Of a DNA stretch of 32,000 nt, positions 7,465 through 23,047 are shown in pieces. Source of the stretch: Deferrisoma camini S3R1. GTDB taxonomy: Bacteria; Desulfobacterota; Deferrisomatia; Deferrisomatales; Deferrisomataceae. The stretch's first letter is position 1, and each line of letters starts with the position of its first letter. Below the pieces are notes generated by a model. It did not search any database and was not told the DNA's origin. It saw nothing but the letters and a program-made list of their open reading frames with translations. The translations under genes were made by a program, and so were the position numbers. The DNA lies in the NCBI RefSeq assembly GCF_000526155.1, contig NZ_JAFN01000001.1, positions 1,605,014 to 1,637,013 of the forward strand, given 5' to 3'.

Positions 7465-7534
7465 CCCGGCGCTGTCGCTCCCTGCTCGGAGGGGCAAGGG
7501 ACCTGTCGGAGAGCCGGGCGCGGCTCTCCCGCAG
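7451..7534. repeat. Partial family-A element fragment
   Basis: CAAAGCTATTG.CCC...GAGGGGCAAGGG.CCTGTCGGAGAGCCGGGCGCGGC matches 1004-1062 of copy 1. It contains the HAD gene stop codon. Confidence 0.7.
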
Positions 7535-7616
7535 ACCCCAAGCCCCCCTGGGCTTTGGCGCGGTTCGAGAGCCGCCTGGCCGCCTAGCTGCCTAACCGCC
7601 CAGCCGCTTGGCCCCC

Positions 7617-8498: not shown

Positions 8499-8505
8499 GG
8501 CAGTA

Positions 8506-8599
8506 ACGGGTGACGGGTGACGGGTGACGGGTGACGGGTGACGACCTGCGACCTGCGACCTGCGACCTGCGACCTGCGACCTGCGACCTGCGACCTGCG
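8506..8599. repeat. Two abutting heptamer tandem arrays: 5 x ACGGGTG (8506-8540) and 8 x ACCTGCG (8544-8599)
   Basis: Perfect copies counted directly from the sequence. They lie between the LysR start codon and the candidate LysR box, inside the divergent promoter region. Confidence 0.95.
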
Positions 8600-8608
8600 A
8601 CCAACAGC

Positions 8609-8623
8609 ATAACTCCACCTTAT
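8609..8623. promoter_or_regulatory. Candidate LysR-type (T-N11-A) operator ATAAC-TCCAC-CTTAT
   Basis: ATAA-N7-TTAT dyad containing a T-N11-A core. It is positioned between the divergent LysR gene (start 8498) and the first UbiD-type gene (8713). Confidence 0.3.
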
Positions 8624-8712
8624 ACATCAGCGCAAAACATATGATTGGACCCCGCCTCCACCGGGCGCTAGAGTCGCAACCCATCAAACGATTTTTTGCG
8701 AAGGAGGGAGAC

Positions 8713-10128
8713 ATGGACCTCAGGGACTTCATCGCCCGCTGCGAGGAAGAGGGGCAGCTCAAGCGGATCGGCGCCGAGGTGGACTGGGACCTGGAGCTCA
8801 GCCACGTGGCCAAGCTCGTGGAAGAACAGGAGGGGCCGGCCCTCCTGTTCGAGAACGTCAAGGATTACGACAGCCCCGTGTTCACGGGTGCGTTCGCCAC
8901 CACCCAGCGGCTGGCCCTGGCCCTGGACAAACCCACCCATCTGAGCCTGTGCGAGCTCACCCGCGAGTGGATGAAGCTCGCGGTGGACAAGATCATCCCG
9001 GCCCAGGAGGTGGAGTCGGGACCGGTGTTTGAAAACGAGTACAGCGGCGACGACGTGGACATCTTCCGGTTCCCCTCGCCCCGGTTCTTCGAGAAGGACG
9101 GCGGCCGCTACATCGGCACGGCCGTGTTCCTGGTGACCCGCGACCCCGAGACCGGCGGGATCAACCTGGGCACCTACCGCATGCAGGCCCAGGAGAAGAA
9201 CCGCATCGGGGTCCAGATCCTCAAGGGCAAGCGGGGCGACCGCATCCTGAAGAAGTACAAGAAGGCCGGGCAGAAGATGCCCGCCTGCGTGGTGATCGGG
9301 TGCGATCCCCTGCTCATGCTCGCGGGAAGCGCCATGGTGGCCAAGGCCAGCGAGTACGACGTGGTGGGGTCGCTCCGGGGCGAGCCGGTCACGGTCACCC
9401 AGGGCAAGGTCACCGGCCTTCCGATCCCGGCCGACGCGGAGATCGTGCTCGAGGGCTGGATCGACCCCGACGATCTGCGGCCCGAGGGGCCCTTCGGCGA
9501 GTACACCGGGTACTACACCGACGAGCTGTTCCACCCCATTCCCAAGCCCTCCATGGTGGTCGAACGCGTGTACCACCGGAACAAGCCGATCCTGTGGGCC
9601 ACGTCGGTGGGCCGCCCGGTCACCGACAACCATTGGATGCTGGCGTTCGTGCGCGGGGCCACCCTGTGGACCGAGCTGGAGAAGATGCGGATCCCCGGGA
9701 TCGAGTCGGTGTACCTGCCGCCCGAGGCCTGCGGCCGGTTCTGGGCCATCGTGAGCGTGCGCCAGATGTACCCCGGCCACGCCAGCCAGGTGGCGGCCGC
9801 GGTGGTGGCCAGCAACACCTGCACCTACGGCACGAAGGGGGTGATCGTGGTGGACCACGACGTGCGCGCCGACGACCTGCCCCGGGTCTGGTGGGCCCTG
9901 GCCACCCGTTTCGACCCGGCCCGGGACACCCAGATCATCCAGCGCGGCCGCTCCACGCCCTTGGACCCGGCCCTGGACCCCGACTCCAACAAGCTCATCA
10001 CCTCCCGCATCCTGCTGGACGCCACCGTTCCGTTCGAGTGGGAGCAGAAGCCGGTGGAGGTGGCCCTGGTGCCCGAGGTGGTGGAGCGGATCAAGAAACG
10101 CTGGAAGGAGCTGGGGCTGGACGACTGA
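8713..10128 (+). CDS. UbiD-family (prFMN-dependent) carboxylase, phenylphosphate carboxylase alpha/beta-type subunit (471 aa)
   Basis: ORF 8641..10128 trimmed to the ATG at 8713, preceded by AAGGAGGGAG. Contains MDLRDFIARCEEEGQLKRIGAEVDWDLELSHV, GGINLGTYRMQ and the active-site loop EGPFGEYTGYYTD, all typical of UbiD. The ~53 kDa size fits PpcA/PpcB. Confidence 0.85.
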   Translation: MDLRDFIARCEEEGQLKRIGAEVDWDLELSHVAKLVEEQEGPALLFENVKDYDSPVFTGAFATTQRLALALDKPTHLSLCELTREWMKLAVDKIIPAQEVESGPVFENEYSGDDVDIFRFPSPRFFEKDGGRYIGTAVFLVTRDPETGGINLGTYRMQAQEKNRIGVQILKGKRGDRILKKYKKAGQKMPACVVIGCDPLLMLAGSAMVAKASEYDVVGSLRGEPVTVTQGKVTGLPIPADAEIVLEGWIDPDDLRPEGPFGEYTGYYTDELFHPIPKPSMVVERVYHRNKPILWATSVGRPVTDNHWMLAFVRGATLWTELEKMRIPGIESVYLPPEACGRFWAIVSVRQMYPGHASQVAAAVVASNTCTYGTKGVIVVDHDVRADDLPRVWWALATRFDPARDTQIIQRGRSTPLDPALDPDSNKLITSRILLDATVPFEWEQKPVEVALVPEVVERIKKRWKELGLDD

Positions 10129-10467
10129 GAGAACTTCCTGAGAAGCCCCTCCAGGCCCCCTGCGGGGCCCGGTACGAGGAAAGGTAACGCTTGGTGGTCC
10201 TGGGGCCATCGGCGGCGGGGCATGGGTTTCAGGGGACAGGAGCCAGAAGAGGGGCAAAGACACTGGGGCCAAAGCGGCGTCGTGGGACCACGCCCTGCCC
10301 ACTGACGTCTGTCCTCTGACTCCTGATCCCCATGCCCCCGGACTGTGAGGTGGAGGCGAGGAGGCATGGGGATGCCTAGAAGGCGCGGGAATCCGAGAGG
10401 TTTTCAGACCTCCCAACGTCCCAGCCTCCCAGCGTCCTAGCGGAAGTTACATGAAAGGAGGCATTCC
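10129..10467 (+). repeat. Mosaic intercistronic element, copy 1
   Basis: Modules in order: GGCCCCCTGCGGGGCC hairpin (10154-10169); a diverged leader-like segment; GGACTGTGAGGTGGAGGCGAGGAGG box (10340-10364); CCTCCCAR octamers (10409-10440); GGAAGTTAC (10442-10450); AAGGAGG SD; ATG at 10468. Modules are shared with 11011-11230 and 30389-30640. Confidence 0.8.
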
Positions 10468-11010
10468 ATGGCCTACGACATGATGGATGCGATCGAGCGG
10501 GCCAAGCGCGTGAAACTGGTGGTCCTGGACGTCCACGGCGTGCTCACGAACGGCATGGTCCTGTTCAACGAGGACGGCGTGAAGTTCCAGGTGTTCCACC
10601 ACGACGACGGGTTCGGGGCCAACGTGCTGATGATGTCGGGCATCGAGGTGGCGCTGCTCACCCGCAAGTCCAAGATCGTGTTCGCCCGGGCCCAGGAGGT
10701 GGGCATCAAGCGGGTGTACGCGGCCAAGGAGAAGTGGGCCAAGATGGAGGAGATCATGGCCGAGATCGGCATCGGCCCCGACGAGGTGTGCTACGTGGGC
10801 GACGAGGTCATCGACCTGGGCGCCATGCGCCGGGTGGGATTCGCGGTGTGCCCGGCCAACGGGGTCCCCGAGGTCCGGGACGCGGCCCATCTCATCACCC
10901 ACAGGGCCGGCGGCGAGGGCATGCTGCGGGAGCTGGCCGAGTTCATCCTCAGGGCCCAGGGCCGATGGGGCGCCCTGGTGGAGAAGATCGCGAACATGGG
11001 CTGGGGCTGA
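10468..11010 (+). CDS. ppcD: KdsC-like HAD phosphatase, phenylphosphate carboxylase delta-subunit candidate (180 aa)
   Basis: Collinear with E. coli KdsC as I remember it (KLVVLDVHGVLTNG, DGFG, GDEVIDLGAMRRVGFAVCPANG, GGEGMLRE). Its size and its position between two UbiD-type subunits fit the 18-kDa phosphatase-family subunit of the Thauera enzyme. Motif I is DVHG instead of DVDG. Confidence 0.75.
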   Translation: MAYDMMDAIERAKRVKLVVLDVHGVLTNGMVLFNEDGVKFQVFHHDDGFGANVLMMSGIEVALLTRKSKIVFARAQEVGIKRVYAAKEKWAKMEEIMAEIGIGPDEVCYVGDEVIDLGAMRRVGFAVCPANGVPEVRDAAHLITHRAGGEGMLRELAEFILRAQGRWGALVEKIANMGWG

Positions 11011-11230
11011 GGCCTCAGAGCCCCGGCTCCACGACGAAAGCTCCATCAGGCCCCTGCGGGGCCGTCTAGAGACTAGAAACTAGAAACTAGACCATGCTTT
11101 CCGGACCGTGAGGTGGAGACAAGGAGGCGTGATGATTTCTAGAACGCATGGGAATCCGGCAGGATTCCAAGCCTTCTAGCCTCCTGGCATTCCAGCCTTC
11201 TAGCGGAAGTTACATGAAAGGGAGATCCCC
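11011..11230 (+). repeat. Mosaic intercistronic element, copy 2
   Basis: Modules in order: GGCCCCTGCGGGGCC hairpin (11049-11063); CTAGAAACTAGAAACTAGA tandem; GGACCGTGAGGTGGAGACAAGGAGG box (11103-11127); CTTCTAGC/CCTCCTGG/ATTCCAGC octamers (11165-11204); GGAAGTTAC (11205-11213); AAGGGAG SD; ATG at 11231. Confidence 0.8.
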
Positions 11231-12679
11231 ATGGCGTACCGCTACTACAAGGACAACCGCGAGTTCATCGAGGCCCTGCGGGCCACCGGAGACCTGGTCA
11301 CGGTGGAGCCCGAGGTGGACTGGGACCTGGAGCTCGGGGCCATCGTCCGGCGGGTGTGCGAGCTCCAAGGCCCGTCGCCCCACTTCAAGAAGATCAAAGA
11401 CTACCCCGGCTTCGAGGCCCTGGGCGCGCCCTTGGCCACCTACCGGAAGCTGGCGGTGTCCCTGGGGCTTCCGGCCGACACCCCGATCCCGGAGATCGGC
11501 AGGGCCTATGTGGAGCGCACCGAGCGGGGCGAGCCCCTCAAGCCCAGGGTGGTGGACCGCAGCCGGGCCCCGTGCAAGCAGAACGTGTGGACGGGCGACG
11601 ACGCCAACCTGTTCAACCTGCCCGCGCCCATGGTCCACGACGGCGACGGCGGCCGGTACCTGGCCACCTGGCACATGGTGGTGGCCAAGGACCCGGACAC
11701 CGGCGAGGTGAACTGGGGCATGTACCGCCAGATGGTGTTCGACGAGAAGACCATGGTGGGCCCGGTGCTGCCGTTCTCCGACATGGGCAAGATGTTCTTC
11801 AACAAGTACGTGCCCCGAAACCAGCCCATGCCGTTCGCCACGGTGATCGGCATGGACCCGCTATCCGGCGTGGCCGCCTGCGCGCCCTCGCCGATCCCGG
11901 AGGACGAGTTCGCGAGCCTCCTCATGGGCGAGGCGGTGGAGGTGGTGAAGTGCGAGACCTCGGACCTGCTGGTGCCGGCCCACGCCGAGATCATCATCGA
12001 GGGCGAGGTGCTGCCGGGCGTCTGGCTCGAGGAGGCGCCGTTCGGGGAGTACACCGGCTACCGCACCTCGCCCCGGGAGCGGCGCACCGTGTACCGGATC
12101 CGGGCGATCACCTTCCGGGACAACCCGATCCTCACCGTGTCGAACATGGGCGTGCCCACGGACGAGGGCCAGCTCCTACGATCGTTCTCCCTGAGCCTCG
12201 AGATGGAGAAGCTCCTGCGTAGCCAGGGCATCCCGATCACCGGCGTGTACATGTGGCCCGAGTCCACCCACCACATGGTGGTGATCGGCACCCGCCACGC
12301 CTACACGGGCATCGCCCATCAGATCGCCAACCTGGTGTTCGGCAGCAAGCTGGGCCCCTGGTTCCACATGGTGGTGGTGGTGGACGAGAACACCGACATC
12401 TACAACAAGAACCAAGTGATCCACGCCCTGGCCACCCGGTGCCATCCGGTCAACGGCATCCACATCTACGAGAACGACGTGGGAACTCCCTTGAACCCCT
12501 ACGCCACCCCGGCCGAGCGACGCCTGGGCAAGGGCGCCAAGGTGCTGTTCGACTGCCTGTTCCCGCGGGACTGGCAGCCCTCTGACATCCCGATCCTGGT
12601 GGCGTTCGACACGGTCTACCCCCAGGAGGTCCGGGACAAGGTGTTGGCCAACTGGAAGGCATACGGGTTTTCCGAATAA
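11231..12679 (+). CDS. UbiD-family carboxylase, second phenylphosphate carboxylase alpha/beta-type subunit (482 aa)
   Basis: Contains FIEALRATGDLVTVEPEVDWDLELGAIVRR, NWGMYRQM and EAPFGEYTGYRTS. It is a paralog of 8713-10128. Confidence 0.85.
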   Translation: MAYRYYKDNREFIEALRATGDLVTVEPEVDWDLELGAIVRRVCELQGPSPHFKKIKDYPGFEALGAPLATYRKLAVSLGLPADTPIPEIGRAYVERTERGEPLKPRVVDRSRAPCKQNVWTGDDANLFNLPAPMVHDGDGGRYLATWHMVVAKDPDTGEVNWGMYRQMVFDEKTMVGPVLPFSDMGKMFFNKYVPRNQPMPFATVIGMDPLSGVAACAPSPIPEDEFASLLMGEAVEVVKCETSDLLVPAHAEIIIEGEVLPGVWLEEAPFGEYTGYRTSPRERRTVYRIRAITFRDNPILTVSNMGVPTDEGQLLRSFSLSLEMEKLLRSQGIPITGVYMWPESTHHMVVIGTRHAYTGIAHQIANLVFGSKLGPWFHMVVVVDENTDIYNKNQVIHALATRCHPVNGIHIYENDVGTPLNPYATPAERRLGKGAKVLFDCLFPRDWQPSDIPILVAFDTVYPQEVRDKVLANWKAYGFSE

Positions 12680-12767
12680 GCCCCGTGAGGCCCCTGCGGA
12701 GCCCTACAACGGGGAAGGGTAACGTTTGTTGGTCCGAAGCCTTCACGCCGGAGGCATGGGGCCGACG

Positions 12768-12964
12768 GTTCAGGAGACAGATTCCAGCGGACAGAAGACA
12801 GGAAATCCCGAAAAGCAGTTTGGTTTCCCGGGGGGATCCTCTCGACACACCGAAGATCCTTCTCCCTGTCTACTGACTTCTGAATTCTGGCCCCTGATAT
12901 GGCCGAAGGCCCAGACCGACGACCAACGACCAACGACCGAAGTTACCGGTAAGGAGTCCGAACC
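12768..12964 (+). repeat. ~190-bp conserved leader element, copy B (runs up to the start codon at 12965 and contains its SD)
   Basis: See copy A (754-943, inverted). It ends ...CGACCAACGACCAACGACCGAAGTTACCGGTAAGGAGTCCGAACC-ATG. Confidence 0.85.
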
Positions 12965-13219
12965 ATGGCTGAATACGACGCGTTTTTCGAGAACCTGCAG
13001 GAGGTCCCCCAGGACGAGGAGATCCGCCTCGTGATCCGGGACCTCACCCCGGGCCGGACCAAGTACCGGTGCCAGGTGGTCCGGGCCCAGGTGTCGAGTG
13101 AGCCTTCCAAGTACCCGGAAAGGCTGTGGCCCCGCCTGGGCCGGGGGCAGTGGGTGGGCGAGCCCTGGTCGATCCGGGTGGTGGAGGAGGTGGACCCCAT
13201 CCCGGAAGCGTGGCGGTAG
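12965..13219 (+). CDS. Small protein (84 aa, about 10 kDa), candidate phenylphosphate carboxylase gamma subunit
   Basis: TAAGGAG SD and strong GC3 bias. Its size and its position directly after the UbiD-type subunits fit the 10-kDa subunit of the Thauera enzyme. I cannot verify sequence similarity from memory. Confidence 0.5.
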   Translation: MAEYDAFFENLQEVPQDEEIRLVIRDLTPGRTKYRCQVVRAQVSSEPSKYPERLWPRLGRGQWVGEPWSIRVVEEVDPIPEAWR

Positions 13220-13232
13220 GGGAGCACGGATC

Positions 13233-14576
13233 GTGGCGTTCCGCGACCTGACCGGGGTGCTGGAGTTCCTCCGGGCCACCGGCCGCCTGGCGGAGGTGGG
13301 GGGCCCCGTGTCGGTGCGACACGAGGTGGCGGCCCTACTCCACGTGGCGTCCCGGCAGCATCGAGCCGTGCACGTGGGTCGGACCGACCGGGGCCCGCTG
13401 CCGGTGGTGGGGAACGTGCTGTGCCACGACGAGGTCCTGGCCCTCGGCCTGGGCGTGCCCTCGGAGCAGGCCGGCCGCGCGTTCGTGGAACGGTGCACCG
13501 CCGAGGTCCCGCCGCGAACCGGGACCGACGGCCCCGTGCTCGAACGTTCGATCGAGCCGGCAGAGATCGGGGAGTTTCTGCCCGTGCTCACCCACTACGA
13601 GGGCGACTCCGGGGCGTTCCTCACCACGGCCGTTGTCTCGGCCGTGGATCCCCGCACCGGCGCCGTGGCCCGGGGCGTCCACCGCATGGAGCAACGGGGA
13701 CCGGATCGGTTCGGCGTAGCCCTGCTGAACCCGCCCCTGTCCGATGTGTACGCCCAGGCCAGGGCGGCGGGCCGGCCCCTGGCGGCCGCTGTGACCCTGG
13801 GGCACGAGCCGCTCACCTTTCTCGCCGCAGCCCTCAAGGGGCGCGCCGGCGAAGACAAGATGGCCGCGGCCGGCGCCCTGCGGGGGGAGCCCGTGGACCT
13901 GGTGAGCGCCCCCCACACCGGTATCCCGGTGCCGGCCGAGGCCGAGATCCTGCTGGAGGGCGAGATCGACCCCTCGGACGAGCGCCCGGACGGCCCGTTC
14001 GGGGAGATCAGCGGGTACCACGTATCGTTTTCCGCCACGCCCACCTTCGTGGTGAAATCGGCCCGGTGCCGGCAGAGCCCCCTGTACCACGCCCTCCTCC
14101 CCACCGGGTGGGAGGCCGACCGGCTCCTGGGCATGGTGGCCGAAGCGTCGGTGCAGGCCCTGGTCGGTCCGGCGCCGGTCGAGGTCACGGCGGTCCGGGC
14201 CGTCCCGTTCTCGTACGGGGCTTCGGTGGTGGTCCGGCTCGCTCCGGCAACGCCGGACCGGATCCGGGCGTTCCTGGAGATCCTGCTGCGCGAGACCCGG
14301 GTGAAGCAGGTGGTGGCCGTGGCCGAGGACGTGGACGTGGAAGATCCCTGGGACGTGGAGTGGTCCGTAGTGAGCCGCAGCCAGCCCGATCGGGACTGGG
14401 TGATCCTGCCGGGCCTCCGGGGCCAGCCCATCGACCCTTCGGCCCACGAGCACGCGGTCACGGCCAAGGCGGCCGTGGACGCCACCGGGTACCACCGGGT
14501 ACCCGGACGGCGGGCTCGGGTGCCCCAAGGGGCCCTGGAGCGGTGCCGGGCGTTCCTGACGAGGAGAGAGCGATGA
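13233..14576 (+). CDS. Divergent third UbiD-family decarboxylase/carboxylase paralog (447 aa)
   Basis: GTG start at 13233 with a GGGGAG SD 8 nt upstream; the ORF track frame is 13098..14576. Contains LEFLRATGRLAEVGGPVSVRHEVAALL, GVHRMEQ and DGPFGEISGYHVS. It is clearly more diverged than the other two paralogs. Confidence 0.75.
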   Translation: MAFRDLTGVLEFLRATGRLAEVGGPVSVRHEVAALLHVASRQHRAVHVGRTDRGPLPVVGNVLCHDEVLALGLGVPSEQAGRAFVERCTAEVPPRTGTDGPVLERSIEPAEIGEFLPVLTHYEGDSGAFLTTAVVSAVDPRTGAVARGVHRMEQRGPDRFGVALLNPPLSDVYAQARAAGRPLAAAVTLGHEPLTFLAAALKGRAGEDKMAAAGALRGEPVDLVSAPHTGIPVPAEAEILLEGEIDPSDERPDGPFGEISGYHVSFSATPTFVVKSARCRQSPLYHALLPTGWEADRLLGMVAEASVQALVGPAPVEVTAVRAVPFSYGASVVVRLAPATPDRIRAFLEILLRETRVKQVVAVAEDVDVEDPWDVEWSVVSRSQPDRDWVILPGLRGQPIDPSAHEHAVTAKAAVDATGYHRVPGRRARVPQGALERCRAFLTRRER

Positions 14577-15169
14577 GTGCACCCCGCAGAATGGTGGTTG
14601 GCATCTCCGGGGCCACCGGCCCCCAGTACGGCATTCGGCTCCTGCAGGTGCTGGGAGAGCTCGGCGTGGAGACCCATCTGGTCCTCTCCAAGGCCGCCCG
14701 GCGAAACATCCGGCTCGAGAGCGACTGGACCCCGGAGCGGGTGGAGGCCCTAGCATCCAAGGTCTACGACCCCGAGGACGTGGGCGCGGCCATCGCCAGC
14801 GGATCGTTCCTGACCGAGGGAATGGTGGTGGCCCCCTGCTCGGTCAAGACCGCCTCGGCCATCTCCAACTCGTACAACGACAACCTGCTGGTGCGGGCGG
14901 CCGACGTGACCCTGAAGGAGCGCCGGCCCCTGGTCCTGCTGTTCCGGGAGACCCCGCTGCACAAAGGGCACCTGGACATCCTCCGCCGGTGCGCCGACAT
15001 TGGGGCGGTGATTCTGCCGCCCATGGTGGCCTTCTACCACCGCCCCCGGACGGTGGAGGAGATCGTGGACCAGACCGTGGGCAAGGTGCTCGACCAGCTC
15101 CGCATCGAGCACAACCTGTTCCGTCGCTGGAAGGGCAGCGACGTGAAGGTGCTGTCGGCGGGAGGATGA
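14573..15169 (+). CDS. ubiX: Flavin prenyltransferase UbiX (prFMN synthase), 198 aa
   Basis: The ATG overlaps the upstream stop (ATGA). Contains RMVVGISGATGPQYGIRLLQVL, MVVAPCSVKTASAISNSYNDNLLVRAADVTLKERRPLVL and RETPLHKGHL, which are canonical UbiX/Pad1 motifs. Confidence 0.95.
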   Translation: MSAPRRMVVGISGATGPQYGIRLLQVLGELGVETHLVLSKAARRNIRLESDWTPERVEALASKVYDPEDVGAAIASGSFLTEGMVVAPCSVKTASAISNSYNDNLLVRAADVTLKERRPLVLLFRETPLHKGHLDILRRCADIGAVILPPMVAFYHRPRTVEEIVDQTVGKVLDQLRIEHNLFRRWKGSDVKVLSAGG

Positions 15170-15230
15170 GCCCCTTGGGCCTTCGGCCCGCTGGACGGCT
15201 CCCCCGCCGCGCCGAAGCTCAGTGAGGCCT

Positions 15231-15306
15231 GGGGCCTGGTTCCGGCCGTGCGTGAGTGCCGAATGCAGCGACTGCAGGAGCCACGCCCGGCGCTCCACCA
15301 GGCCCC
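15231..15306. repeat. Internally deleted family-A element fragment (inverted relative to copy 2)
   Basis: GGGGCCTGGTTCCGGCCGTGCGTGAGTGC...GCAGCGACTGCAGGAGCCACGCCCGGCGCTCCACCAGGCCCC is the revcomp of 17701-17739 joined to the revcomp of 17542-17583. Confidence 0.7.
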
Positions 15307-15393
15307 AGGCCTCCCCGACTTGTGGCGTCGGCGCAGCGCTCAGAGATCGCGGAGGTTTTTGGCTTTCCAGCTTCCTAGCCTCGGAGAGGACCT

Positions 15394-16737
15394 ATGCCGT
15401 ACCCGGAAACCGAGTACTGGAACCCGATCACCGAGACCCTGGACCCGGACCGGCTCCGGGAGATCCAGCTGGCCAAGTTCCGGCGGGTGTTCGCCTGGGT
15501 ATACGAGCGAAGCCCCATGTATCGCCGCAAGTACGACGAGGCCGGCCTTCGGCCGGAGGACGTGCGGACCTGGGACGACCTGGCCAAGGTGCCCCTGGTG
15601 ACCAAGGACGACTACCGATGCCAGGGCGCGGACCCGTTTCCCTACGGCGACACCCTGTGCGTGCCCCTGGAGGAGGTGACCGAGTACCACCAGACCTCGG
15701 GCACCACCGGCACCCCCGTGTATCAGCCCGACACCTGGGCCGACTGGGAGTGGTTCTCGGAGCTCTGGGCCACGATCCTGTGGGCCCAGGGGTACCGGCC
15801 CACCGACCGGGTGTTCTTCCCCTTCGGGTACCACGTGTTCATCGCCTTCTGGACCGCCCACTACGGGGCCGAGAGGCTCGGGTGCGAGGTGGTCCCCGGC
15901 GGGGTGCTGGGCACCCGGGAGCGGCTGCTCAAGATGCGCGAGCTCAAGACCAACGCCTTCATGGCCACCCCCACCTACGTACTGGGCATGGCCGAGACCG
16001 CGCGCAAGGACCTGGGCGCCGACCCCCGGGAGTGGGGCATCGAGCGGATCACATGCGCCGGGGAGCCTGGGGCCTCGGTTCCAACGACGAAAAAGCGGAT
16101 GCAGGACGCCTGGGGCTGCCCCGTGTACGACCACGTGGGCGCCACCGAGGTCGGCGCCTGGGGGTTCGAGTGCCGGCACCAGCCCGGGGGCCAGCACGTG
16201 ATCGAGTCCATGTTCCTGGTGGAGCTCCTGGAGTTGGATGCGGATCGGCCCGTGACCCGGCCCGGGGTGCCGGGACGGATCGTGATCACCGCCTTCGACC
16301 GGAGGGCCCAGCCGTGCGTGCGGTTCGACACCAAGGACGTGTCCATGTGGGCCGCGGACGGATGCGGGTGCGGCCGCACCTGGCGGATCCTCGAAGGTGG
16401 GGTCCACGGCCGGGTGGACCACATCACCAAGGTGAAGGGGGTGCTGTTCTCCCCGGTCACCGTGGAGGAGGTGGTCCGATCGTTCGAGGAGCTGGACGGC
16501 GAGTTCGAGATCTTCGTGGAGAAGCGGGGGGACCTGGATCACATCACCCTCAAGGTGGAGCTGCCCGACGGACTGGCCCCGCCGGACCGGGACAACCTAC
16601 TCAAGGAGCTGGCCAGCCGGCTCCGGTGGAAGACCCAGCTCAACTTCGACATCCAGCCCCAGCCCTACGGCAGCCTGCCGCGCTACCAGGTCAAAGCCCG
16701 CCGGTTCCACGATCTTCGCAAGAAGGGAGGCGTGTAA
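15394..16737 (+). CDS. PaaK-family adenylate-forming aryl-acid CoA ligase (phenylacetate-CoA ligase / F390 synthetase family), 447 aa
   Basis: Contains LREIQLAKFRRVFAWVYERSPMYRRKYDEAGL, VPLVTKDDYR and the P-loop-like HQTSGTTGTPV. The ~50 kDa size is typical of PaaK and shorter than benzoate-type ligases. Confidence 0.85.
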   Translation: MPYPETEYWNPITETLDPDRLREIQLAKFRRVFAWVYERSPMYRRKYDEAGLRPEDVRTWDDLAKVPLVTKDDYRCQGADPFPYGDTLCVPLEEVTEYHQTSGTTGTPVYQPDTWADWEWFSELWATILWAQGYRPTDRVFFPFGYHVFIAFWTAHYGAERLGCEVVPGGVLGTRERLLKMRELKTNAFMATPTYVLGMAETARKDLGADPREWGIERITCAGEPGASVPTTKKRMQDAWGCPVYDHVGATEVGAWGFECRHQPGGQHVIESMFLVELLELDADRPVTRPGVPGRIVITAFDRRAQPCVRFDTKDVSMWAADGCGCGRTWRILEGGVHGRVDHITKVKGVLFSPVTVEEVVRSFEELDGEFEIFVEKRGDLDHITLKVELPDGLAPPDRDNLLKELASRLRWKTQLNFDIQPQPYGSLPRYQVKARRFHDLRKKGGV

Positions 16738-16945: not shown

Positions 16946-17494
16946 ATGGAGGTCCATTTCGGGCACCGGGTGTCCCGGGAGGGGTGGTGGAGCTTCGAGA
17001 CCCACCCCCACATGGTGCGCACGAAGCGCCGCATCCACGAGCGGTGCCTGCCGTGCCTCGCCGGGCTGCTGGATCAGCTGAAGACGGACCGGAGGGAGAT
17101 CGACCTGCCCCATGCCTGGGACTGCTGGAAGGTGGTGGCCGTGGCCCCGGACGAGGCGACCTGCATGGAGATCCTCGACCGGCTGGCCGAGGACCACCCG
17201 GACCTATACCTCCACGGCAAGCTGGGGGGCCGGCGGGATCGCTACGGGACCTCGGCCCTGGTCCTCCACGCCGAGGGGGAGGCCGAGCGGGACCGGCTGG
17301 TGGGCTGCCTGCGAAAGACATTGGAACACCATTTCCCGCAGGTACCCCTCCAGCTCTCCCGGGCCTGCGCCGACCCCTACGCCGAGCTCCTGGGCCCCTG
17401 GCAGGACTGGACCCTGCCGTGCCCCATTCGGCACCCGGAGGCGGTGCCCCGGGTGGTTCGGCGGCTGCGGGAGCTCCTTTACGGCGCGGGCTGA
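16946..17494 (+). CDS. Hypothetical protein (182 aa), Cys/His/Trp-rich, unknown function
   Basis: ORF 16871..17494 trimmed to the ATG at 16946 (MEVHFGHRVSREGWW...). Strong GC3 codon bias throughout. Weak SD. No family recognised. Confidence 0.5.
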   Translation: MEVHFGHRVSREGWWSFETHPHMVRTKRRIHERCLPCLAGLLDQLKTDRREIDLPHAWDCWKVVAVAPDEATCMEILDRLAEDHPDLYLHGKLGGRRDRYGTSALVLHAEGEAERDRLVGCLRKTLEHHFPQVPLQLSRACADPYAELLGPWQDWTLPCPIRHPEAVPRVVRRLRELLYGAG

Positions 17495-17787: not shown

Positions 17788-18900
17788 CTAGCCGGCGTGC
17801 GCGGGCAGCTCCACCACGGCCCAGGCTCCTCCCCCCTCGCGCTCTTCGAGCCGGATCGTGCCCCCCCACGCCTCCACGATGCGGCGGCACACCGTGAGCC
17901 CCAGCCCCCCGCCCTTCTCCTTGGTGGTCACGAACGGCTCGAAGAACCGCTCCGGGTCCTCGCCGCCGAAGCCGGGCCCCCGGTCTCCCACCCGCAGCCG
18001 CACCCGCCTCAGGCGCTCCAGGCGCAGCACCGGATCGAGCAGGGAGTCTCCTCCCCTCTCCTCCTGCCGCTCCACCACGTCGCCCACCACCTCGACCGCC
18101 CCGCCCCAAGGCGTCACGTCCGCCGCATTCAGCAGAAGGTTCAGCACGACCTGCTTCAGCTCCGACGCATCGGCCCACACCGTGGGCAGATCCGGCGGCA
18201 GGTCGGCGTCCACCGACACCTGAGCCCGCTGCAGGCGGTGCCGCACCAGGGGCAGGGTCTCCCCCACCACCACGGCCAGGCGCACCGGCGCGGGGGCGCT
18301 TCCCGTCGTCGCGGAGCGCGCGTAGCCCAGCAACTGGTCGATCAGGGTGCGGCACCGGTGCGCTTCTTCGTAGATGCGGCGGCGGATCGAACCGTCCGGG
18401 TCGGTCTCGGTCTCGCTCCGGAGCAGCGCCGCAAACCCCAGGATCACCGACACGGGGTTGCCCACCTCGTGCACCACCGACGCGGCCAGCTCCCCCAAGG
18501 TGGCCAGCCGCTCGTACTGCACCAGTTTCCGGTCCACCGCGTCCCGCAGGGAGTGGTCGGTGGCCAGCCACAGCCGGCCCGCGGGCCGGCCGGCCGGGTC
18601 CCGGACTGGCCGGGACCGAAGCCGGAGACGCATGGGCCGACCGTCCGCCCGGGTGGCGTCGCACACCATGTCCACCCAAGCGTTCCCCCGGGAGTCCGCC
18701 GGCTCCTCCCCCGGGTTCGGCCGCCCGAGGGCCTCCTGCCACGGCCGCCCCTCCACCTGCGGCGCCAGGCGGCCGGTCAGGATCTCCGCGGCCGGGTTCC
18801 AGCCCACGACCCGGCCCTGGGTGTCGGTCACGAACGCTGCACAGGGGACCCCCTCCCACAGTGCGTCGCCTATGTCGTATTTCAGACCATTTATCGTCAT
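17788..18900 (-). CDS. Cytoplasmic PAS-domain sensor histidine kinase (370 aa)
   Basis: N-terminal PAS (AAFVTDTQGRVVGWNPAAEILTG). H-box LATLGELAASVVHEVGNPV. N-box VVLNLLLNA. G-boxes DRGPGF and GGGLGL. No TM segment. Confidence 0.9.
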   Translation of the reverse strand: MTINGLKYDIGDALWEGVPCAAFVTDTQGRVVGWNPAAEILTGRLAPQVEGRPWQEALGRPNPGEEPADSRGNAWVDMVCDATRADGRPMRLRLRSRPVRDPAGRPAGRLWLATDHSLRDAVDRKLVQYERLATLGELAASVVHEVGNPVSVILGFAALLRSETETDPDGSIRRRIYEEAHRCRTLIDQLLGYARSATTGSAPAPVRLAVVVGETLPLVRHRLQRAQVSVDADLPPDLPTVWADASELKQVVLNLLLNAADVTPWGGAVEVVGDVVERQEERGGDSLLDPVLRLERLRRVRLRVGDRGPGFGGEDPERFFEPFVTTKEKGGGLGLTVCRRIVEAWGGTIRLEEREGGGAWAVVELPAHAG

Positions 18901-19136
18901 TTCCTACCCATGTTTGATTTCTCGTGCTATGATCGGTCGTCGCGAGCGATGCCGGGGCCGAGCTCCTCTCGTGAGACGGGCAACAAGCGGAATCGCCGGA
19001 AATTACCCATGCGCGGACCGGGTCGCCCCCGGCCCGGCCGGCCGTCTCCCCCCGATCGAACTCCCGCCTCTCCACGGGATGGCCCGATGTTTGAATACTA
19101 CCGAACAAAACCCTGTATGGTCCAGGAGGGGCCCTA

Positions 19137-20279
19137 TTGAGCGGCCCGACCCTGGAGACGTTGGCCTTCTCCCCCGGCGATCCGTCCCGATTCGTCCGGC
19201 CGGTGGCGTGGGGGGGGAGCCTGCGGCCGGTGGAGCCCTCGCCCGCCGGGACGGTGTGCGAGGCCGAGGTGCCAAGCCGGCTGCACGCCCTGGTGTTGGA
19301 CATGACCCGCTTCGATCTCGGCCGCCCCGGAGGCGGGGGGGTTGGGTTCGCCGTGGGGCTGTTCTCCCGAGCCCGGGTCATGCTGACCGACGCCCCCGGT
19401 GTTCGGTCCACGGGAAGCCGCCCGCTGCTGGGGCAGCACCTGGCCCACCTGTTCCTGGCCCTCACCGGATACCCAGGCGGGGTGGAGATCCAGACTCGGG
19501 ACCACGGCCGGCGGCACATGGGGCTCGGCTCGTCGGTGGCAACCCTGACCGCGGCCGCCCTGGCCTTGAACGAGGCCCTGGGCCGGCCCTTGGATCTGCG
19601 GGACCTGCGCAAGCTGATCGCCCACAACTACTGCGAGGAGTTCTCGTCGGCCCCGCCCCGGCTGGTGCCCGGGTTCGAGACCAACGTGGGCGCCATGGCC
19701 GGCCTGCACGGGGGACTGGTGGTGGGGTCCGACCGGTGTGAACTGCTGGCCCGGGTCGCCCTGCCCGAGGACCTGCGGGCCCTGCTGATCCTGCCCCAGA
19801 TCGCGCCCGAGGTGTCGTCGGGGGCAGGGGAGTACCGGTCGCTGGTCCAGACCGCCCGTCGGGCGGACGAGCAGGCCGCACCAGCAAAGGTGTACCGGGT
19901 GTTCATGGACCTCCTGCCAGCCGCCCTCACGGGCGACCTCAGGGCCGTAGGAGACGTTCTCTGGGAGCTTTCCCACGGCGGATCCAAGCTGGCCGAGATC
20001 GAGCTCCACGGCGATCGCGGCAAGGAGGTCTGGGCGACCATGGAACGGCTCCGGAACGAGGGGGCAGAGATCGTGGGCATGAGCTCGGTGGGCCCGGCGG
20101 TGTTCGCCCTGAGCCGCGACGCCGGGGTCTGGGCGAAGTGGAAACGGTGGGAGGGTTCCTCGGCCGTGACCTGCTCCGTCACCGTACCGGTGGACAGCCG
20201 TGGCGCCCGGGTCCGCCTGGACGGAACCCCCATCCCGTACCGGTTCGAGCCCTGGTGGTCCGACCCCGTGTACGGCTGA
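19137..20279 (+). CDS. GHMP-kinase-fold protein resembling beta-ribofuranosylaminobenzene 5'-phosphate (beta-RFAP) synthase family, 380 aa
   Basis: TTG start with an AGGAGG SD 7 nt upstream. The GHMP motif HMGLGSSVATLTAAALALNEALG is present. The N-terminal PSRLHALVLDMTRFDLGRPGGGGVGFAV resembles the RxHxxLxDxxGxxGRxxGGxG signature I associate with beta-RFAP synthases. The family call needs an HMM check. Confidence 0.6.
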   Translation: MSGPTLETLAFSPGDPSRFVRPVAWGGSLRPVEPSPAGTVCEAEVPSRLHALVLDMTRFDLGRPGGGGVGFAVGLFSRARVMLTDAPGVRSTGSRPLLGQHLAHLFLALTGYPGGVEIQTRDHGRRHMGLGSSVATLTAAALALNEALGRPLDLRDLRKLIAHNYCEEFSSAPPRLVPGFETNVGAMAGLHGGLVVGSDRCELLARVALPEDLRALLILPQIAPEVSSGAGEYRSLVQTARRADEQAAPAKVYRVFMDLLPAALTGDLRAVGDVLWELSHGGSKLAEIELHGDRGKEVWATMERLRNEGAEIVGMSSVGPAVFALSRDAGVWAKWKRWEGSSAVTCSVTVPVDSRGARVRLDGTPIPYRFEPWWSDPVYG

Positions 20280-20505
20280 TACCAAGTCGCATTCGAAGCC
20301 AGCGATTTGGGAGCCGTCGGCCCGGGGCGCGACGGCCGAGCCGTTCAAGCCGTTCGGCGCAGGGGAGCGCCTGCGGCGCGTGCTCTCTCGCGCCGCAGCA
20401 GACCGAGCCGTAGCGGCTTCGGCGAGGCCGTCTTTTCCAGCGGAGGACCGACGGCCCCCAAATCGCCCCTCTATGAGCTCATCCTGATCGCAAATCGGCA
20501 TGAGG
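20277..20505. mobile_element. Foldback MITE-like element, family B, copy 2
   Basis: The left end TGATACCAAGTCGCATTCGAAGCC includes the stop codon of the GHMP-like gene. The right end is GATCGCAAATCGGCATGAGG. It is an inverted near-duplicate of 6512-6741. Confidence 0.75.
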
Positions 20506-20559
20506 TCCCCCCTGCGGGGAGCCCGGAGCTCCCCCTTCGCAAGGAAAGGAGGAAGGCGC

Positions 20560-21525
20560 ATGAGACGAGGACGCGGCACGACCTGGTGGTGGACCGGATT
20601 GGTCCTGGGGCTCACGCTGTGCGCGGGCTCCGCCGTGGCCGGCGGAGGCCAGCACTACCCCAACGGAGCCGAGGACTTCGTGGTGGGCGCCCTGCCCCCG
20701 CCCGGGGTCTACTTCAAGAACTATCTCGTCTACATCAACAAAGACCGGCTCATGGACAACGAGGGCAAGAAGACCCCGGTGGAGTTCGACGCGAGCGTGT
20801 TCGCGGCGATCCCCCGCTTCATCTGGGTCAGCCCCTACAAGATCCTGGGCGCCTCGTGGGGGGCCCACGTCTTCATCCCGTTCTACACGGCAGACGTCGA
20901 GGTAACCGCTCAGACCCCGGGAGGTCCCCTCAAGGTGGTGAACGACTCGGACGGCGGGCTCGGTGACATCATCTTCAGTCCGTTCATCCTGGGATGGCAC
21001 TTCGGCCCGAACTTCCACGCCGTGTTCGCCGTGGACATCTGGGCCCCGACCGGAAACTACGACAACGAAGACGTATCCACCCAGCTCCTGTCGCGAAACC
21101 ACTGGACCTTCGAGCCGGTGTTCGCGGCCACCTACCTGTGGAACGGGTTCGACTTCTCCGTGAAGCTCATGTACGACTTCAACACCACCAACGACGAGTA
21201 CCTCGTGCCTGACGGAGCCGGCGGCATGAAGGAAGTGGATCTCGACCCGGGCCAGGAGTTCCACTTCGACTGGGCCGTGGGCTGGTCCCCCAAGCCGGGC
21301 TGGCGGTTCGGGGTGAACGGGTTCTACTATTGGCAGACCACCGACGACGAGATCGACGGCACCGAGGACCCCAACCGCAGCCGGCTCGCCGCGATCGGCC
21401 CGGGCCTCAAGTGGTGGCCGAACCAGGGGCGGTTCAGCGTGGTGGCCAAGCAACTTTGGGAGTTCGACGGCAAGAACATGCCCGAGGGATCGAGCACCTG
21501 GATCAACGTGGTGTGGGTGTTCTGA
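20560..21525 (+). CDS. Outer-membrane beta-barrel channel of the 'MetA-pathway of phenol degradation' (Phenol_MetA_deg-like) family, 321 aa
   Basis: ORF trimmed to the ATG at 20560, preceded by GGAAAGGAGGAAGG. Signal peptide MRRGRGTTWWWTGLVLGLTLCAGSAVA. The sequence is aromatic-rich with alternating strands and contains GGLGDIIFSPFILGW. It ends in a C-terminal aromatic residue (VVWVF). Confidence 0.7.
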   Translation: MRRGRGTTWWWTGLVLGLTLCAGSAVAGGGQHYPNGAEDFVVGALPPPGVYFKNYLVYINKDRLMDNEGKKTPVEFDASVFAAIPRFIWVSPYKILGASWGAHVFIPFYTADVEVTAQTPGGPLKVVNDSDGGLGDIIFSPFILGWHFGPNFHAVFAVDIWAPTGNYDNEDVSTQLLSRNHWTFEPVFAATYLWNGFDFSVKLMYDFNTTNDEYLVPDGAGGMKEVDLDPGQEFHFDWAVGWSPKPGWRFGVNGFYYWQTTDDEIDGTEDPNRSRLAAIGPGLKWWPNQGRFSVVAKQLWEFDGKNMPEGSSTWINVVWVF

Positions 21526-21586: not shown

Positions 21587-23047
21587 ATGGCCCATCCCCG
21601 GCGAGCCGAGAATCCCACGGAACACGTCCCCCGGATCCTGGTGGTGGACGACGAGGTCGGCATGCTCGACCTCCTCCGGCGGGTGCTGGAGCGGGAGGGG
21701 TACGCCGTGGAGACGGCCAGCTCGGCCGAGCAGGCGGAGCTCTTCCTGGCGGGGACCCCCTTCGATCTGGTGATCACCGACCTGGTCCTGGGCGGCCGGG
21801 GCGGCGAGCACGTGGTCCGGGTGACCAAGTCCACCCAGCCCGAGACCGAGATCCTCGTCATCACGGCCCACGCCTCGGTGGACTCCGCGGTGGAGGTGAT
21901 GAGGGAGGGGGCCTTCGACTACCTGCGCAAGCCCCTGCTGCCGGAGGAGATCCTCCACGTAGTGCGCCGGGCGCTCGAGATGAAAGGGCTGCGCGACGAG
22001 GTCCGGACGCTACGCCGGGAGAAGGCCGCGGCGCTGCTCCAGGGGGAGCTCCTGGGCCGCAGCCCGGCCATGCTCCGGGTGTTCGAGCGGGTGCGCCGGG
22101 CGGCCCGTACCGATGCCACGGTTCTGCTGGAAGGGGAGTCGGGCACGGGCAAGGAGCTGGTCGCCCGGGCCATCCACGCCGAGTCCCGCCGGGCCTCGGG
22201 GCCGTTCGTGCCGGTGAACTGCGGGGCGATCCCCGGCGACCTTCTGGAGTCCGAGCTGTTCGGACACGTGCGGGGCGCCTTCACCGGCGCCCATGCCGAC
22301 CGGCAGGGGTACTTCGAGGCCGCCTCCGGCGGCACCCTGTTCCTGGACGAGATCGGCGAGATGGACCCGCGGCTCCAGGTGAAGCTGCTGCGGGTGCTCC
22401 AGGACTCGGCCGTGACCCGGGTGGGCGAGACCCGGCCCAGGCCGGTGGACGTGCGGATCGTGGCGGCCACCAACCGCAGGCTCCTCGATGCGGTGCAGGA
22501 CGGGTCGTTCCGGAACGACCTGTACTACCGGCTCCGGGTCGTGCACATCGAGCTTCCTCCCCTGCGGGAGCGGCGGGAGGACATCCTGCTGCTGGCCCAC
22601 GCGTTCCTCCAGCGGTTCGCCCGGGCCTACGGCAAGGGGTTCGAGGACATCGACCCCCGGGCCGCCCGCACCCTGCAGCGGTATGACTACCCCGGCAACG
22701 TGCGGGAGCTGCGAAACATCATCGAGAGTGCGGTGGTGATGGGGCGGGGGAAGATCATCCACGAGTCCCACCTGCGCGAGGCCATGGGGGAAGAGGCGTT
22801 TTCCCGGGCCTCGGGGGCGCCGGCCGAGTGGGAGCTGCCGTTCGACGAGGCCCTGGCGCGGGTGGTGGAGGAGTTCGAGCGGGCGTATCTGGAGCACAAC
22901 CTGCGGAGGTTCGGGGGTCGGATCAAGAACCTGATCCAGGCCTCGGGGCTGTCGCGCCGAACCATCGAACGCAAGATGGCCCGCTACGGCCTGTCGCGGC
23001 GCGACTTCGTGCCCGGCCGGGGGCCGGGGGGAGGATCGAAGGGGTAA
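21587..23047 (+). CDS. NtrC-family sigma54-dependent response regulator (REC + AAA+ + Fis-type HTH), 486 aa
   Basis: REC domain: RILVVDDE...DLVITDL...LRKP. AAA+ domain: VLLEGESGTGKELVARAIH, the GAFTGA sigma54-contact loop, LFLDEIGEM and VRIVAATN. C-terminal HTH: ASGLSRRTIERKMARYGL. Confidence 0.95.
   Translation: MAHPRRAENPTEHVPRILVVDDEVGMLDLLRRVLEREGYAVETASSAEQAELFLAGTPFDLVITDLVLGGRGGEHVVRVTKSTQPETEILVITAHASVDSAVEVMREGAFDYLRKPLLPEEILHVVRRALEMKGLRDEVRTLRREKAAALLQGELLGRSPAMLRVFERVRRAARTDATVLLEGESGTGKELVARAIHAESRRASGPFVPVNCGAIPGDLLESELFGHVRGAFTGAHADRQGYFEAASGGTLFLDEIGEMDPRLQVKLLRVLQDSAVTRVGETRPRPVDVRIVAATNRRLLDAVQDGSFRNDLYYRLRVVHIELPPLRERREDILLLAHAFLQRFARAYGKGFEDIDPRAARTLQRYDYPGNVRELRNIIESAVVMGRGKIIHESHLREAMGEEAFSRASGAPAEWELPFDEALARVVEEFERAYLEHNLRRFGGRIKNLIQASGLSRRTIERKMARYGLSRRDFVPGRGPGGGSKG

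Follow-up and report, generated by a model that had tools for sequence, protein, structure and literature searches.

The GHMP-fold protein gene at 19137..20279 (+) of the window, as we call the analysed stretch of 32,000 nucleotides from Deferrisoma camini S3R1, forms a trio with genes for a histidine kinase (HK) and a sigma-54-dependent response regulator (RR), and the three are inherited together, next to genes of anaerobic phenol and 4-hydroxybenzoate metabolism. The invariant partners of the GHMP gene are the kinase and the sigma-54 regulator, not ppc or ubiX. We tentatively suggest, with a little less than even confidence, that the GHMP protein provides the signal input, as a third component, to a two-component system that responds to phenol. 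A role in phenol sensing is more likely than one in 4-hydroxybenzoate metabolism, because the gene always lies between the HK and RR genes beside phenol genes.

The comparison covered 17 loci, that is, the window and 16 related loci. The GHMP gene adjoins a divergent PAS histidine-kinase gene in all 17; the sigma-54 regulator gene follows on the same strand wherever the contig extends far enough, immediately 3' in 13 of the 16 related loci, and in loci with no intervening channel gene the gap between the two is 11 to 91 bp, or the genes overlap. Orthologues of the kinase form only 21 clusters, with no match between E 6e-79 and 1e-40, and these clusters share contigs with the GHMP clade. No kinase orthologue was observed apart from the GHMP gene, which was also present in all three loci retrieved via the kinase alone (3/3). 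The GHMP gene thus shows the two features expected of an accessory component, a constant position next to a single HK/RR pair and joint inheritance with it. The gene of an orphan 182-aa protein with a CxxC motif (unk182; 16946..17491, +), which follows a PaaK-like ligase gene and a conserved 56-aa ORF, adjoins the kinase gene in 16/17 loci, the exception being L002, a 3.5-kb contig that ends within the kinase gene; unk182 yields a confident structure model, yet no significant PDB match.

In the window, the divergent neighbour encodes a soluble, NtrB/AtoS-like PAS-HisKA-HATPase kinase (17788..18900, −; Pfam, NCBIfam), in which no membrane segment is evident by eye. On the other side lie genes for a Phenol_MetA_deg outer-membrane channel (20500..21525, +; Pfam) and for an AtoC/NtrC-like regulator with receiver, AAA+, and HTH_8 domains (21587..23047, +; Pfam, NCBIfam). 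Pfam confirms the placement of the GHMP gene between sensor kinase and channel, as described in the earlier note; the position of the channel gene between the GHMP and RR genes is limited to the window lineage (window, L001, L002, and L007). A 214-bp MITE-like element with terminal inverted repeats (20282..20495, +), with a second copy at 6522-6735 (92%), sits as an insertion between the GHMP gene and the channel gene, and is missing from the same site in all related loci. The gene had been taken to be flanked by such elements; the downstream one indeed adjoins it, while the upstream one (17495-17790) lies beyond the kinase gene.

The HK/GHMP/RR loci lie alongside pps, ppc, ubiX, CoA-ligase, or 4-hydroxybenzoyl-CoA-reductase genes. 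In the window this catabolic context (3155..16737; + strand, LysR on the − strand) comprises ppsA, ppsB, DUF120, HAD, LysR, ppcB, ppcD, ppcA, ppcC, a third UbiD, UbiX (14576-15169), and the PaaK-like ligase; 4-hydroxybenzoate is the product of these neighbouring genes. Co-occurrence with ppc/ubiX genes, proposed earlier as a check, is strict for genes of the pps/ppc type and incomplete for ubiX, as a scan of 16 loci located it a few kb away at most in 11 of them; L003 has neither UbiD nor UbiX within 10 kb. Synteny with regulators is in itself no proof of a regulatory role. The GHMP gene is also always close to catabolic genes, and might thus have a catabolic or cofactor-related function and share its transcript with the regulator gene.

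The promoter signals differ between the GHMP gene and the catabolic genes. The divergent intergenic region between the kinase and GHMP genes (18901..19136), whose function is a matter of prediction only, contains an extended −10-like sequence GTGCTATGAT at 18924-18933 (+), the form of which is kept in most orthologous loci though not evidently in L013. It also contains a sigma-54-like sequence TGGCCCGATGTTTGAA at 19080-19095, which is weak and lacks the −12 GC. A search of this region for canonical promoters of the GHMP gene, of either the sigma-70 or the sigma-54 type, found none, and across the orthologous loci no conserved promoter of this gene could be assigned with confidence. A sigma-54-type promoter TGGCACGACCCCTGCA is located at 3080..3095 (+), 60 nt 5' of ppsA, and is a likely target of the response regulator; comparable sequences lie ahead of the ligase gene in L003, L008, and L088. 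As the sigma-54-type promoters stand before ppsA or the ligase gene and not before the GHMP gene, the latter appears to belong to the regulatory unit rather than to an induced catabolic unit.

The assignment of the gene rests on the ORF, motifs, HMMs, AF2/Foldseek, and the tree. It encodes 380 aa, the same length as in its Deferrisoma orthologues, and has, as noted earlier, a TTG start with a strong Shine-Dalgarno sequence AGGAGG (19124..19129, +) 7 nt upstream; both are retained in the L007 relative (96% identity). The codon-position GC of 0.73/0.54/0.90 matches the coding pattern of the window (68% GC). Both motifs reported earlier were located: the GHMP P-loop-like motif HMGLGSSVATLTAAALALNEALG at residues 127-149 and the N-terminal RLHxxxLDxxxxxLGRxGGGGxG segment SRLHALVLDMTRFDLGRPGGGGVG at residues 47-70. 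The GHMP fold is borne out by PF00288 (GHMP_kinases_N; 29.2 bits vs. GA 22.3) and by an AF2 model (pLDDT 90.5) that matches GHMP structures (ForT, homoserine kinase (HSK), IspE, MVD) at Foldseek E ~1e-16, well past chance; the C-terminal domain PF08544 scores 17.2 bits vs. GA 21, and the structural match spans the full length. All residues invariant in the family are retained (R48, H50, D55, H127-G-x-G-S132, E167/E168, E181-T182, E232, K284, E287, and S316-S317), so that the alignment shows a predicted phosphate-binding loop and predicted active-site residues that are intact. Some pocket positions, e.g., N183 and A162, are clade-specific, and the same is true of the C-terminal tail and of a number of further positions (L361, P365, W374). 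Retention of the invariant residues together with clade-specific pocket positions would fit an active enzyme of altered specificity.

The protein belongs to an uncharacterised family of ~160 clusters (50% identity, E<=1e-30) that occurs in sulfate reducers, Firmicutes, and numerous methanogens and whose members are currently labelled 'beta-RFAP synthase' or 'sugar kinase' in databases. In the tree, the family stands apart from RFAP synthases and ForT (bootstrap 100), and the window protein is a member of a small monophyletic clade within it (bootstrap 100), of which a metagenome scan gave a single extra locus. The sister clade occurs in operons with TrpF-like, Zn-ADH, and LsrF-like aldolase genes. 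Independently, L035, a locus from Chloroflexota, has a family member immediately after a GntR/UTRA regulator gene, near pps and UbiD genes, which speaks for the proposed signal-input role.

The earlier note called the protein beta-RFAP-synthase-like, and this holds as far as beta-RFAP synthase and ForT outrank homoserine kinase as its nearest NCBIfam and solved-structure matches; a family-only profile likewise finds 6yqq and 8ap0 (ForT/RFAP type) as the best solved structures, at E 4e-12. Identity with beta-RFAP synthase is rejected by both HMMs (53 bits vs. cutoff 328 and 38.5 vs. 113.5 for NF040726 and TIGR00144, respectively), and the family is a separate one: P0044 of the sister clade reaches 80 bits with the RFAP-synthase HMM, below the cutoff of 113.5, and the family profile in turn gives true RFAP synthases only 83-97 bits. 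The target shares with ForT/RFAP (RHP) synthase the fold (TM 0.73), PxRLH with R48 (ForT R19), the HxGxG loop, E232 (ForT E211), K284 (ForT K263), and E287 (PMC8183095, PMC9832568). The residues corresponding to the ForT pyrophosphate loop (H99-S104, R19) are invariant in the family as H127, G129, G131, S132, and R48, and so are E232 and K284, the counterparts of essential residues; ForT E211 is catalytically essential (PMC8183095, PMC9832568).

Unlike these enzymes, the target lacks equivalents of ForT R135, T106, T138, and the S174 loop. In ForT, R135 and T106 bind the PRPP 5'-phosphate, both being essential by ITC (PMC8183095), and both are conserved in the RFAP synthases aligned; here they are replaced by H163 (H/Y/N/F/L in the family) and V134 (V/I/S), respectively, although the family-invariant R158 may substitute for R135. 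The S174 loop, which orders on the aryl carboxylate (PMC9832568), is located within a 22-residue insertion of ForT that is deleted across the whole family; T138 corresponds to E181, and the equivalent of Mth R26 is Gly. The target has an extra 15-residue segment NYCEE...GFETN and N- and C-terminal extensions, and its genomic context is regulatory, whereas that of ForT/RFAP synthase is cofactor or antibiotic biosynthesis.

These substitutions bear directly on the proposal that the protein joins PRPP and 4-hydroxybenzoate in a CO2-releasing reaction that yields 4-(beta-D-ribofuranosyl)phenol 5'-phosphate. A passage of PMC8183095 on RHP synthase, citing White 2011, does state that the methanogen enzyme accepts 4-hydroxybenzoate, the compound made by the adjoining genes; the closest characterised relatives and their common residues are in line with such a reaction, and the pairing of the sister clade with a TrpF-like isomerase suggests phosphoribosyl-type products. 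We nevertheless consider it very improbable, given the HMM scores far under the cutoffs, the absence of the PRPP 5'-phosphate residues and the aryl-carboxylate loop, and the lack of methanopterin-type genes near the GHMP gene. Decarboxylative ribosylation would, moreover, reverse the carboxylation step that costs ATP, and the ATP spent on it would be wasted.

Membership in a standard GHMP kinase clade was rejected as well: the scores against equivalog cutoffs are 31.7/194 and 22.7/168 for thrB, 27.9/126.9 for archaeal shikimate kinase, and 11.5/163 for mevalonate kinase, and none of the homoserine, mevalonate, shikimate, or galactokinase cutoffs is reached. The fold does not distinguish ForT-like proteins from kinases, as ForT, HSK, and IspE all give TM 0.68-0.76; direct phmmer comparison with PDB yields weak HSK matches only, and profiles are required for more. 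Like homoserine kinase (ThrB), the target has the GHMP fold (4p52, E 8.5e-17), and its middle segment aligns with HSK free of gaps, E168 corresponding to the second Glu of MEGE, the Mg-binding Glu position, and T182-N183 to D-N of HADNVAP. Motif 1, however, is PSRLH, unlike PATSAN of HSK, and there is no threonine-pathway context.

The gap-free alignment to a kinase could speak for an ordinary auxiliary enzyme of phenol degradation whose gene just happens to be in one operon with the regulator gene, e.g., an ATP-dependent small-molecule kinase that provides the precursor of a cofactor, as DMAP is for UbiX, or acts on a phosphorylated by-product. The constant proximity of pps, ppc, ligase, or hcr genes, the frequent presence of UbiX, the further cofactor-type genes in the cluster (UbiX and the DUF120 riboflavin-kinase-like gene), and the fusions of some family members to adenylate-kinase-like domains are all compatible with it. 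We find this reading unlikely, as the linkage to HK/RR is tighter than to any catabolic gene, the L003 locus lacks UbiD and UbiX within 10 kb, and the GHMP gene has no sigma-54 promoter. Against DMAP in particular, the mevalonate and isoprenoid GHMP clades show no affinity by HMM, and NUDIX genes, the usual DMAP source, are present in L088 and L035; the earlier suggestion of a prenol-to-DMAP kinase for UbiX receives no support from synteny.

In the preferred signal-input role, the protein probably produces a phosphorylated ligand or binds one. The enzyme would convert phenol, phenylphosphate, 4-hydroxybenzoate, or a related metabolite, with ATP or PRPP as the donor, to a non-diffusible ligand carrying a phosphate or phosphoribosyl group; this tagged ligand would be detected by the PAS kinase in the cytoplasm, which would phosphorylate the regulator, and the regulator would then switch on the sigma-54 promoters before pps and the CoA-ligase operon. 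The strict form of this scheme, with the GHMP protein as an obligate third component that tags a phenolic metabolite, so that the PAS kinase senses an enzyme-made second messenger and not phenol itself, is possible though doubtful.

The proposed logic resembles that of the AI-2 system, in which an enzyme phosphate-tags a small molecule and a regulator senses the tagged form; there the enzyme, LsrK, belongs to the FGGY kinases, and the regulator, LsrR, is a repressor of the one-component type. The LsrF-like aldolase of the sister-clade operons echoes the Lsr system; unlike in LsrK/LsrR, the GHMP protein has a PAS-type histidine kinase and an activator of sigma-54 promoters as partners. Gal3p, the yeast GHMP-fold transcriptional sensor, and PII-NtrB-NtrC provide another parallel, with a GHMP-fold or small sensor protein as switch input and HK/RR here NtrB/NtrC-like, while the sequence kinship does not go beyond the superfamily and the catalytic motifs here look intact.

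By analogy with Gal3p, the protein might bind a phenolic or phosphorylated metabolite and a nucleotide and, with turnover dispensable, switch the PAS kinase or the regulator in the manner of PII and NtrB. Synteny and co-inheritance with HK/RR agree with this reading just as with the enzymatic one; the clade-specific C-terminal tail, the soluble NtrB-like kinase, and the existence of eukaryotic GHMP-fold sensors also favour it. As the catalytic-site residues are all kept and the degeneration typical of non-catalytic GHMP proteins is not seen, we regard it as quite unlikely. To our knowledge, there is no precedent for a GHMP-fold protein within a bacterial two-component system, and none was found in the literature; searches on GHMP in phenol clusters, RFAP with 4-hydroxybenzoate, COG1907/DUF2148, and the GHMP/TrpF/aldolase operon gave nothing relevant.

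The profile scores show that the label 'beta-RFAP synthase' on members of this family is wrong by the RFAP-synthase family's own criteria, and its correction matters for inferring the methanopterin pathway in genomes. Anaerobic phenol sensing is known from Aromatoleum, where the one-component sigma-54 activator PheR is the proposed phenol sensor (PMC10715001). If the signal-input role is true, a kinase-fold enzyme between HK and RR would represent another way of detecting an aromatic compound that is toxic and passes through membranes. The GHMP protein gives an entry to a family that comprises 160 or more sequence clusters and, if the proposed role is true, would be the first functional handle on this large unstudied sister family of C-glycoside synthases.

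The gene at 19137-20279 (+) encodes a GHMP-fold protein of 380 amino acids, with a TTG start and an AGGAGG sequence 7 nt upstream of it (19124-19129, +); both motif strings quoted for this protein in the earlier note are found in the translated ORF. The GC content of its three codon positions (0.73/0.54/0.90) follows the coding pattern of the window (68% GC), whose closest relatives are Deferrisoma and Deferrisomatales MAGs, and orthologues that share its length (380 aa) and N-terminus occur in Deferrisoma (75% identity) and in one MAG (96-97%). The protein scores above the gathering score of Pfam GHMP_kinases_N (29.2; 22.3) and slightly below that of GHMP_kinases_C (17.2; 21). Its AlphaFold2 model, obtained with an alignment of 25 family sequences, has high confidence (pLDDT 90.5, pTM 0.91) and matches ForT, homoserine kinase, IspE, and mevalonate-diphosphate decarboxylase over the full length (E 1e-16 to 1e-13, TM at most 0.76).

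The top NCBIfam models are those of beta-RFAP synthase (NF040726, 53 bits, cutoff 328; TIGR00144, 38.5, cutoff 113.5), followed by homoserine kinase (31.7, cutoff 194) and then by archaeal shikimate kinase and mevalonate kinase. As all these scores are far below cutoff, the HMM comparison suggested in the earlier note, beta_RFAP_syn versus other GHMP clades, assigns the protein neither to RFAP synthase nor to a standard kinase clade. A profile built from the protein's own family only retrieves, among solved structures, ForT (6yqq, 8ap0, 8aoz) at E 4e-12 and homoserine kinase 4p52 at E 4e-10; ForT is the PRPP-dependent C-glycoside synthase of formycin biosynthesis. Against 1.84 billion representatives, this profile yields 816 clusters at E<=1e-10, of which 160 reach E<=1e-30; true RFAP synthases score 83-97 bits, and each of the 150 best clusters at least 127 bits. 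The neighbour-joining tree (109 sequences, 60 bootstraps) places RFAP synthases and ForT outside the family (104 sequences; support 100), and the 12 proteins linked to a PAS histidine kinase and a sigma-54 response regulator form one clade, also with support 100. Its sister is a bacterial clade of 30 sequences (support 90), while archaeal members occupy other branches. These tests do not justify calling family members "beta-RFAP synthase" or "sugar kinase", as databases do.

Both neighbours claimed for the gene, a sensor kinase and an outer-membrane channel, are present by domain match: a PAS-HisKA-HATPase kinase (17788-18900, -) and a Phenol_MetA_deg channel (20500-21525, +), the latter followed by a sigma-54 response regulator (21587-23047, +; domain match). 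Upstream of the GHMP gene lie ppsA-like (3155-4996) and ppsB-like (5000-6100) genes; a small DUF120/CTP-dependent riboflavin-kinase-like ORF 3' of ppsB (~6139-6546, +; PF01982, 94.9 bits), masked by a longer ORF in a simple ORF list and possibly a PpsC-like or flavin-supply gene; a HAD hydrolase gene and, on the minus strand, a LysR regulator gene; ppcB (TIGR02724, 694 bits), a ppcD-like gene, ppcA (TIGR02723, 690 bits), and ppcC, with ppcB and ppcA scoring above cutoff; a third UbiD paralogue; UbiX (14576-15169, +; PF02441, 133 bits; 93% identity to Deferrisoma UbiX), in frame with, and masked by, the long spurious ORF 13421-15169; and a PaaK-like CoA ligase gene. The reading of the island as a 4-hydroxybenzoate producer, from phenol via phenylphosphate, is sound.

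The window also carries repeats. A 214-bp element occurs in two copies, 92% identical and in opposite orientation (20282-20495 and 6522-6735), the second of which provides the last codons and stop of the DUF120 ORF. It has 22-nt terminal inverted repeats and a predicted hairpin of -115 kcal/mol (z -3.85), and is MITE-like, since it is absent from its two sites in L007, a 96%-identical relative, and in all other loci. The largest copy of a nested palindromic, REP-like intergenic element (17495-17790) separates the 3' end of the kinase gene from an orphan gene; partial copies are at 992-1253, 2753-2785, 7487-7526, 15231-15317, and 30544-30566. Perfect or near-perfect intergenic tandem repeats of 7-8-nt units are seen at 8506-8602 (between LysR and ppcB; ACGGGTG x5.4, then CGACCTG x8.7), 2388-2504, 7570-7607, 10409-10442, 11066-11091, 12914-12938, 24136-24169, and 30340-30387.

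Crystal structures, ITC, and kinetics of ForT (PMC8183095, PMC9832568) supplied the reference residues that were mapped onto the protein. R19 (here R48), the pyrophosphate loop H99-S104 (H127, G129, G131, S132), the essential E211 (E232), and K263 (K284) are kept; S139 (T182) and Q266 (E287, with Glu also in RFAP synthases) are counted as kept. In contrast, T106 is replaced by V134 (V/I/S family-wide), R135 by H163 (H/Y/N/F/L family-wide), and T138 by E181; the loop that binds the carboxylate (S174) is deleted, and R26 of the Methanothermobacter enzyme (PMC6787355) becomes Gly62. In ForT, T106 and R135 hold the PRPP 5'-phosphate, and PRPP binding needs both (PMC8183095, PMC9832568). Family-invariant R158, sharing a helix with H163, might replace R135. 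The family segment NYCEE(164-168)...GFETNVGAM(179-187) has no counterpart in ForT or RFAP synthases and aligns without gaps to MEGE...SAHADNVAP of homoserine kinase, a segment that contains the Mg-binding Glu and the Asp-Asn binding homoserine. N183 occurs only in the kinase/regulator-linked clade; all other family members have Gly there. Further family-invariant charged residues are R95, H101, D122, H123, R158, E167, E168, D199, R241, D244, and K251. Judged by alignment, the phosphate-handling core is intact, with ATP and PRPP both candidate donors, and the acceptor pocket is unlike those of both ForT/RFAP synthase and homoserine kinase. Decarboxylative ribosylation of the island's 4-hydroxybenzoate, as proposed earlier, would be energetically futile, and the protein lacks the residues for the PRPP 5'-phosphate and the carboxylate, so we consider it very improbable. 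A non-catalytic sensor, Gal3p- or PII-like, is distinctly unlikely, as all family-invariant site residues persist.

Related loci were collected by exact-protein look-up, a one-genome-per-GTDB-species scan, and a metagenome scan, and, independently, via orthologues of the histidine kinase; gene maps were made by tblastn with the window's proteins. The PAS kinase gene, followed on the opposite strand by the GHMP and sigma-54 regulator genes, is seen in the window and in 16/16 loci (L001-L003, L006-L014, L087-L090), the contigs of L002, L011, and L090 being cut off ahead of the regulator gene or within the kinase gene. A channel gene separates the GHMP and regulator genes in the window, L001, L002, and L007 alone; otherwise these genes are 11-91 bp apart or overlap. 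The kinase orthologue group (21 clusters) is as narrow as the GHMP clade, with no match between E 6e-79 and 1e-40. The orphan gene (16946-17491, +; 182 aa, CxxC motif, only 5 homologue clusters found) adjoins the kinase gene in 16 of 17 loci, the short contig of L002 ending inside the latter. Its product has no Pfam match, and its AF2 model (pLDDT 89.9) has no significant match in PDB (a weak PII/ACT-like half); a conserved ORF of 56-61 aa (16737-16904, +) precedes it. Catabolic genes vary: ppc and ubiX flank the clade's gene in 11 of the 16 loci scanned, L003 has pps and ligase genes with no UbiD or UbiX within 10 kb, and L089 has 4-hydroxybenzoyl-CoA-reductase-like and ligase genes.

By sequence match, a good sigma-54 promoter, TGGCACGACCCCTGCA (3080-3095, +), lies 60 nt 5' of ppsA, and comparable sites lie 5' of the ligase gene in L003 (5894-5909), L008 (747-762), and L088 (2046-2061). 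No sigma-54-type promoter was found 5' of the GHMP gene; the kinase-GHMP intergenic region contains a putative extended -10-like motif, GTGCTAtnAT, whose form is kept in most of 12 aligned loci and is not evident in L013. Because kinase and regulator are the sole invariant association of the clade, and because the GHMP gene belongs to the regulatory transcription unit and not to the sigma-54-driven catabolic ones, we rank highest, if tentatively, a signal-input role of the GHMP protein with these two partners; that it is an ordinary accessory or cofactor enzyme, sharing an operon with the regulator, is unlikely.

The sister clade (Desulfobulbaceae, Desulfosarcina, Desulfonema, Pelotomaculum, Desulfotomaculum, gammaproteobacterial MAGs) has a different context, a conserved four-gene operon GHMP/PRAI (TrpF-like)/Zn-ADH/DeoC-family aldolase in sulfate reducers, Firmicutes, and gammaproteobacterial MAGs (L004, L015-L043, L091-L097; e.g., L092 8001-11640). 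PRAI is found in 27 loci, Zn-ADH in 20, and the aldolase, LsrF- or ADH-synthase-like (270 bits, cutoff 297), in 19, plus five more loci from metagenomes. The sister clade's earliest-branching member, from a Chloroflexota MAG, directly follows a GntR/UTRA regulator gene (L035 8244-10285); pps, UPF0261, and UbiD genes lie ~6 kb away, beyond two NUDIX genes and a gene for an MFS transporter. In 30 loci, methanogen members lie directly 3' of a DUF2148 gene. The paralogue that follows this ferredoxin-domain gene in Methanothrix and Methanomicrobiales (among L005, L044-L084) is distinct from the true RFAP synthase, and some of these loci have a DUF447 gene near it. In Methanocorpusculum loci the paralogue is present and no DUF2148 neighbour was detected. 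Some family proteins carry an additional adenylate-kinase-like, methyltransferase, or PrnB-like domain by fusion (P0071, P0093, P0099, P0102, P0138; P0143; P0164, P0174). The TrpF-like partner hints at phosphoribosyl-type products, and the adenylate-kinase fusions at kinase cascades. Separately, two true RFAP synthases of Methanothrix (P0056, P0057) carry ahead of the GHMP domains a PF01947 domain, presumably chorismate pyruvate-lyase-like; in that case 4-hydroxybenzoate would be a fitting substrate for them.

In the signal-input role, the GHMP protein would be an enzyme making a phosphorylated ligand, which the cytoplasmic PAS kinase would sense. This logic resembles that of LsrK/LsrR, with its enzyme-made ligand, and of aromatic regulons with CoA-thioester inducers. 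The GHMP superfamily and its PRPP-using branch are already known, and the literature searched contains no description of this family or of its embedding in a two-component system; where anaerobic phenol sensing is known, it relies on a one-component regulator, PheR (PMC10715001). The clade has a narrow taxonomic range, and its mechanism is inferential; the finding itself is real, and its context is unusual and testable.
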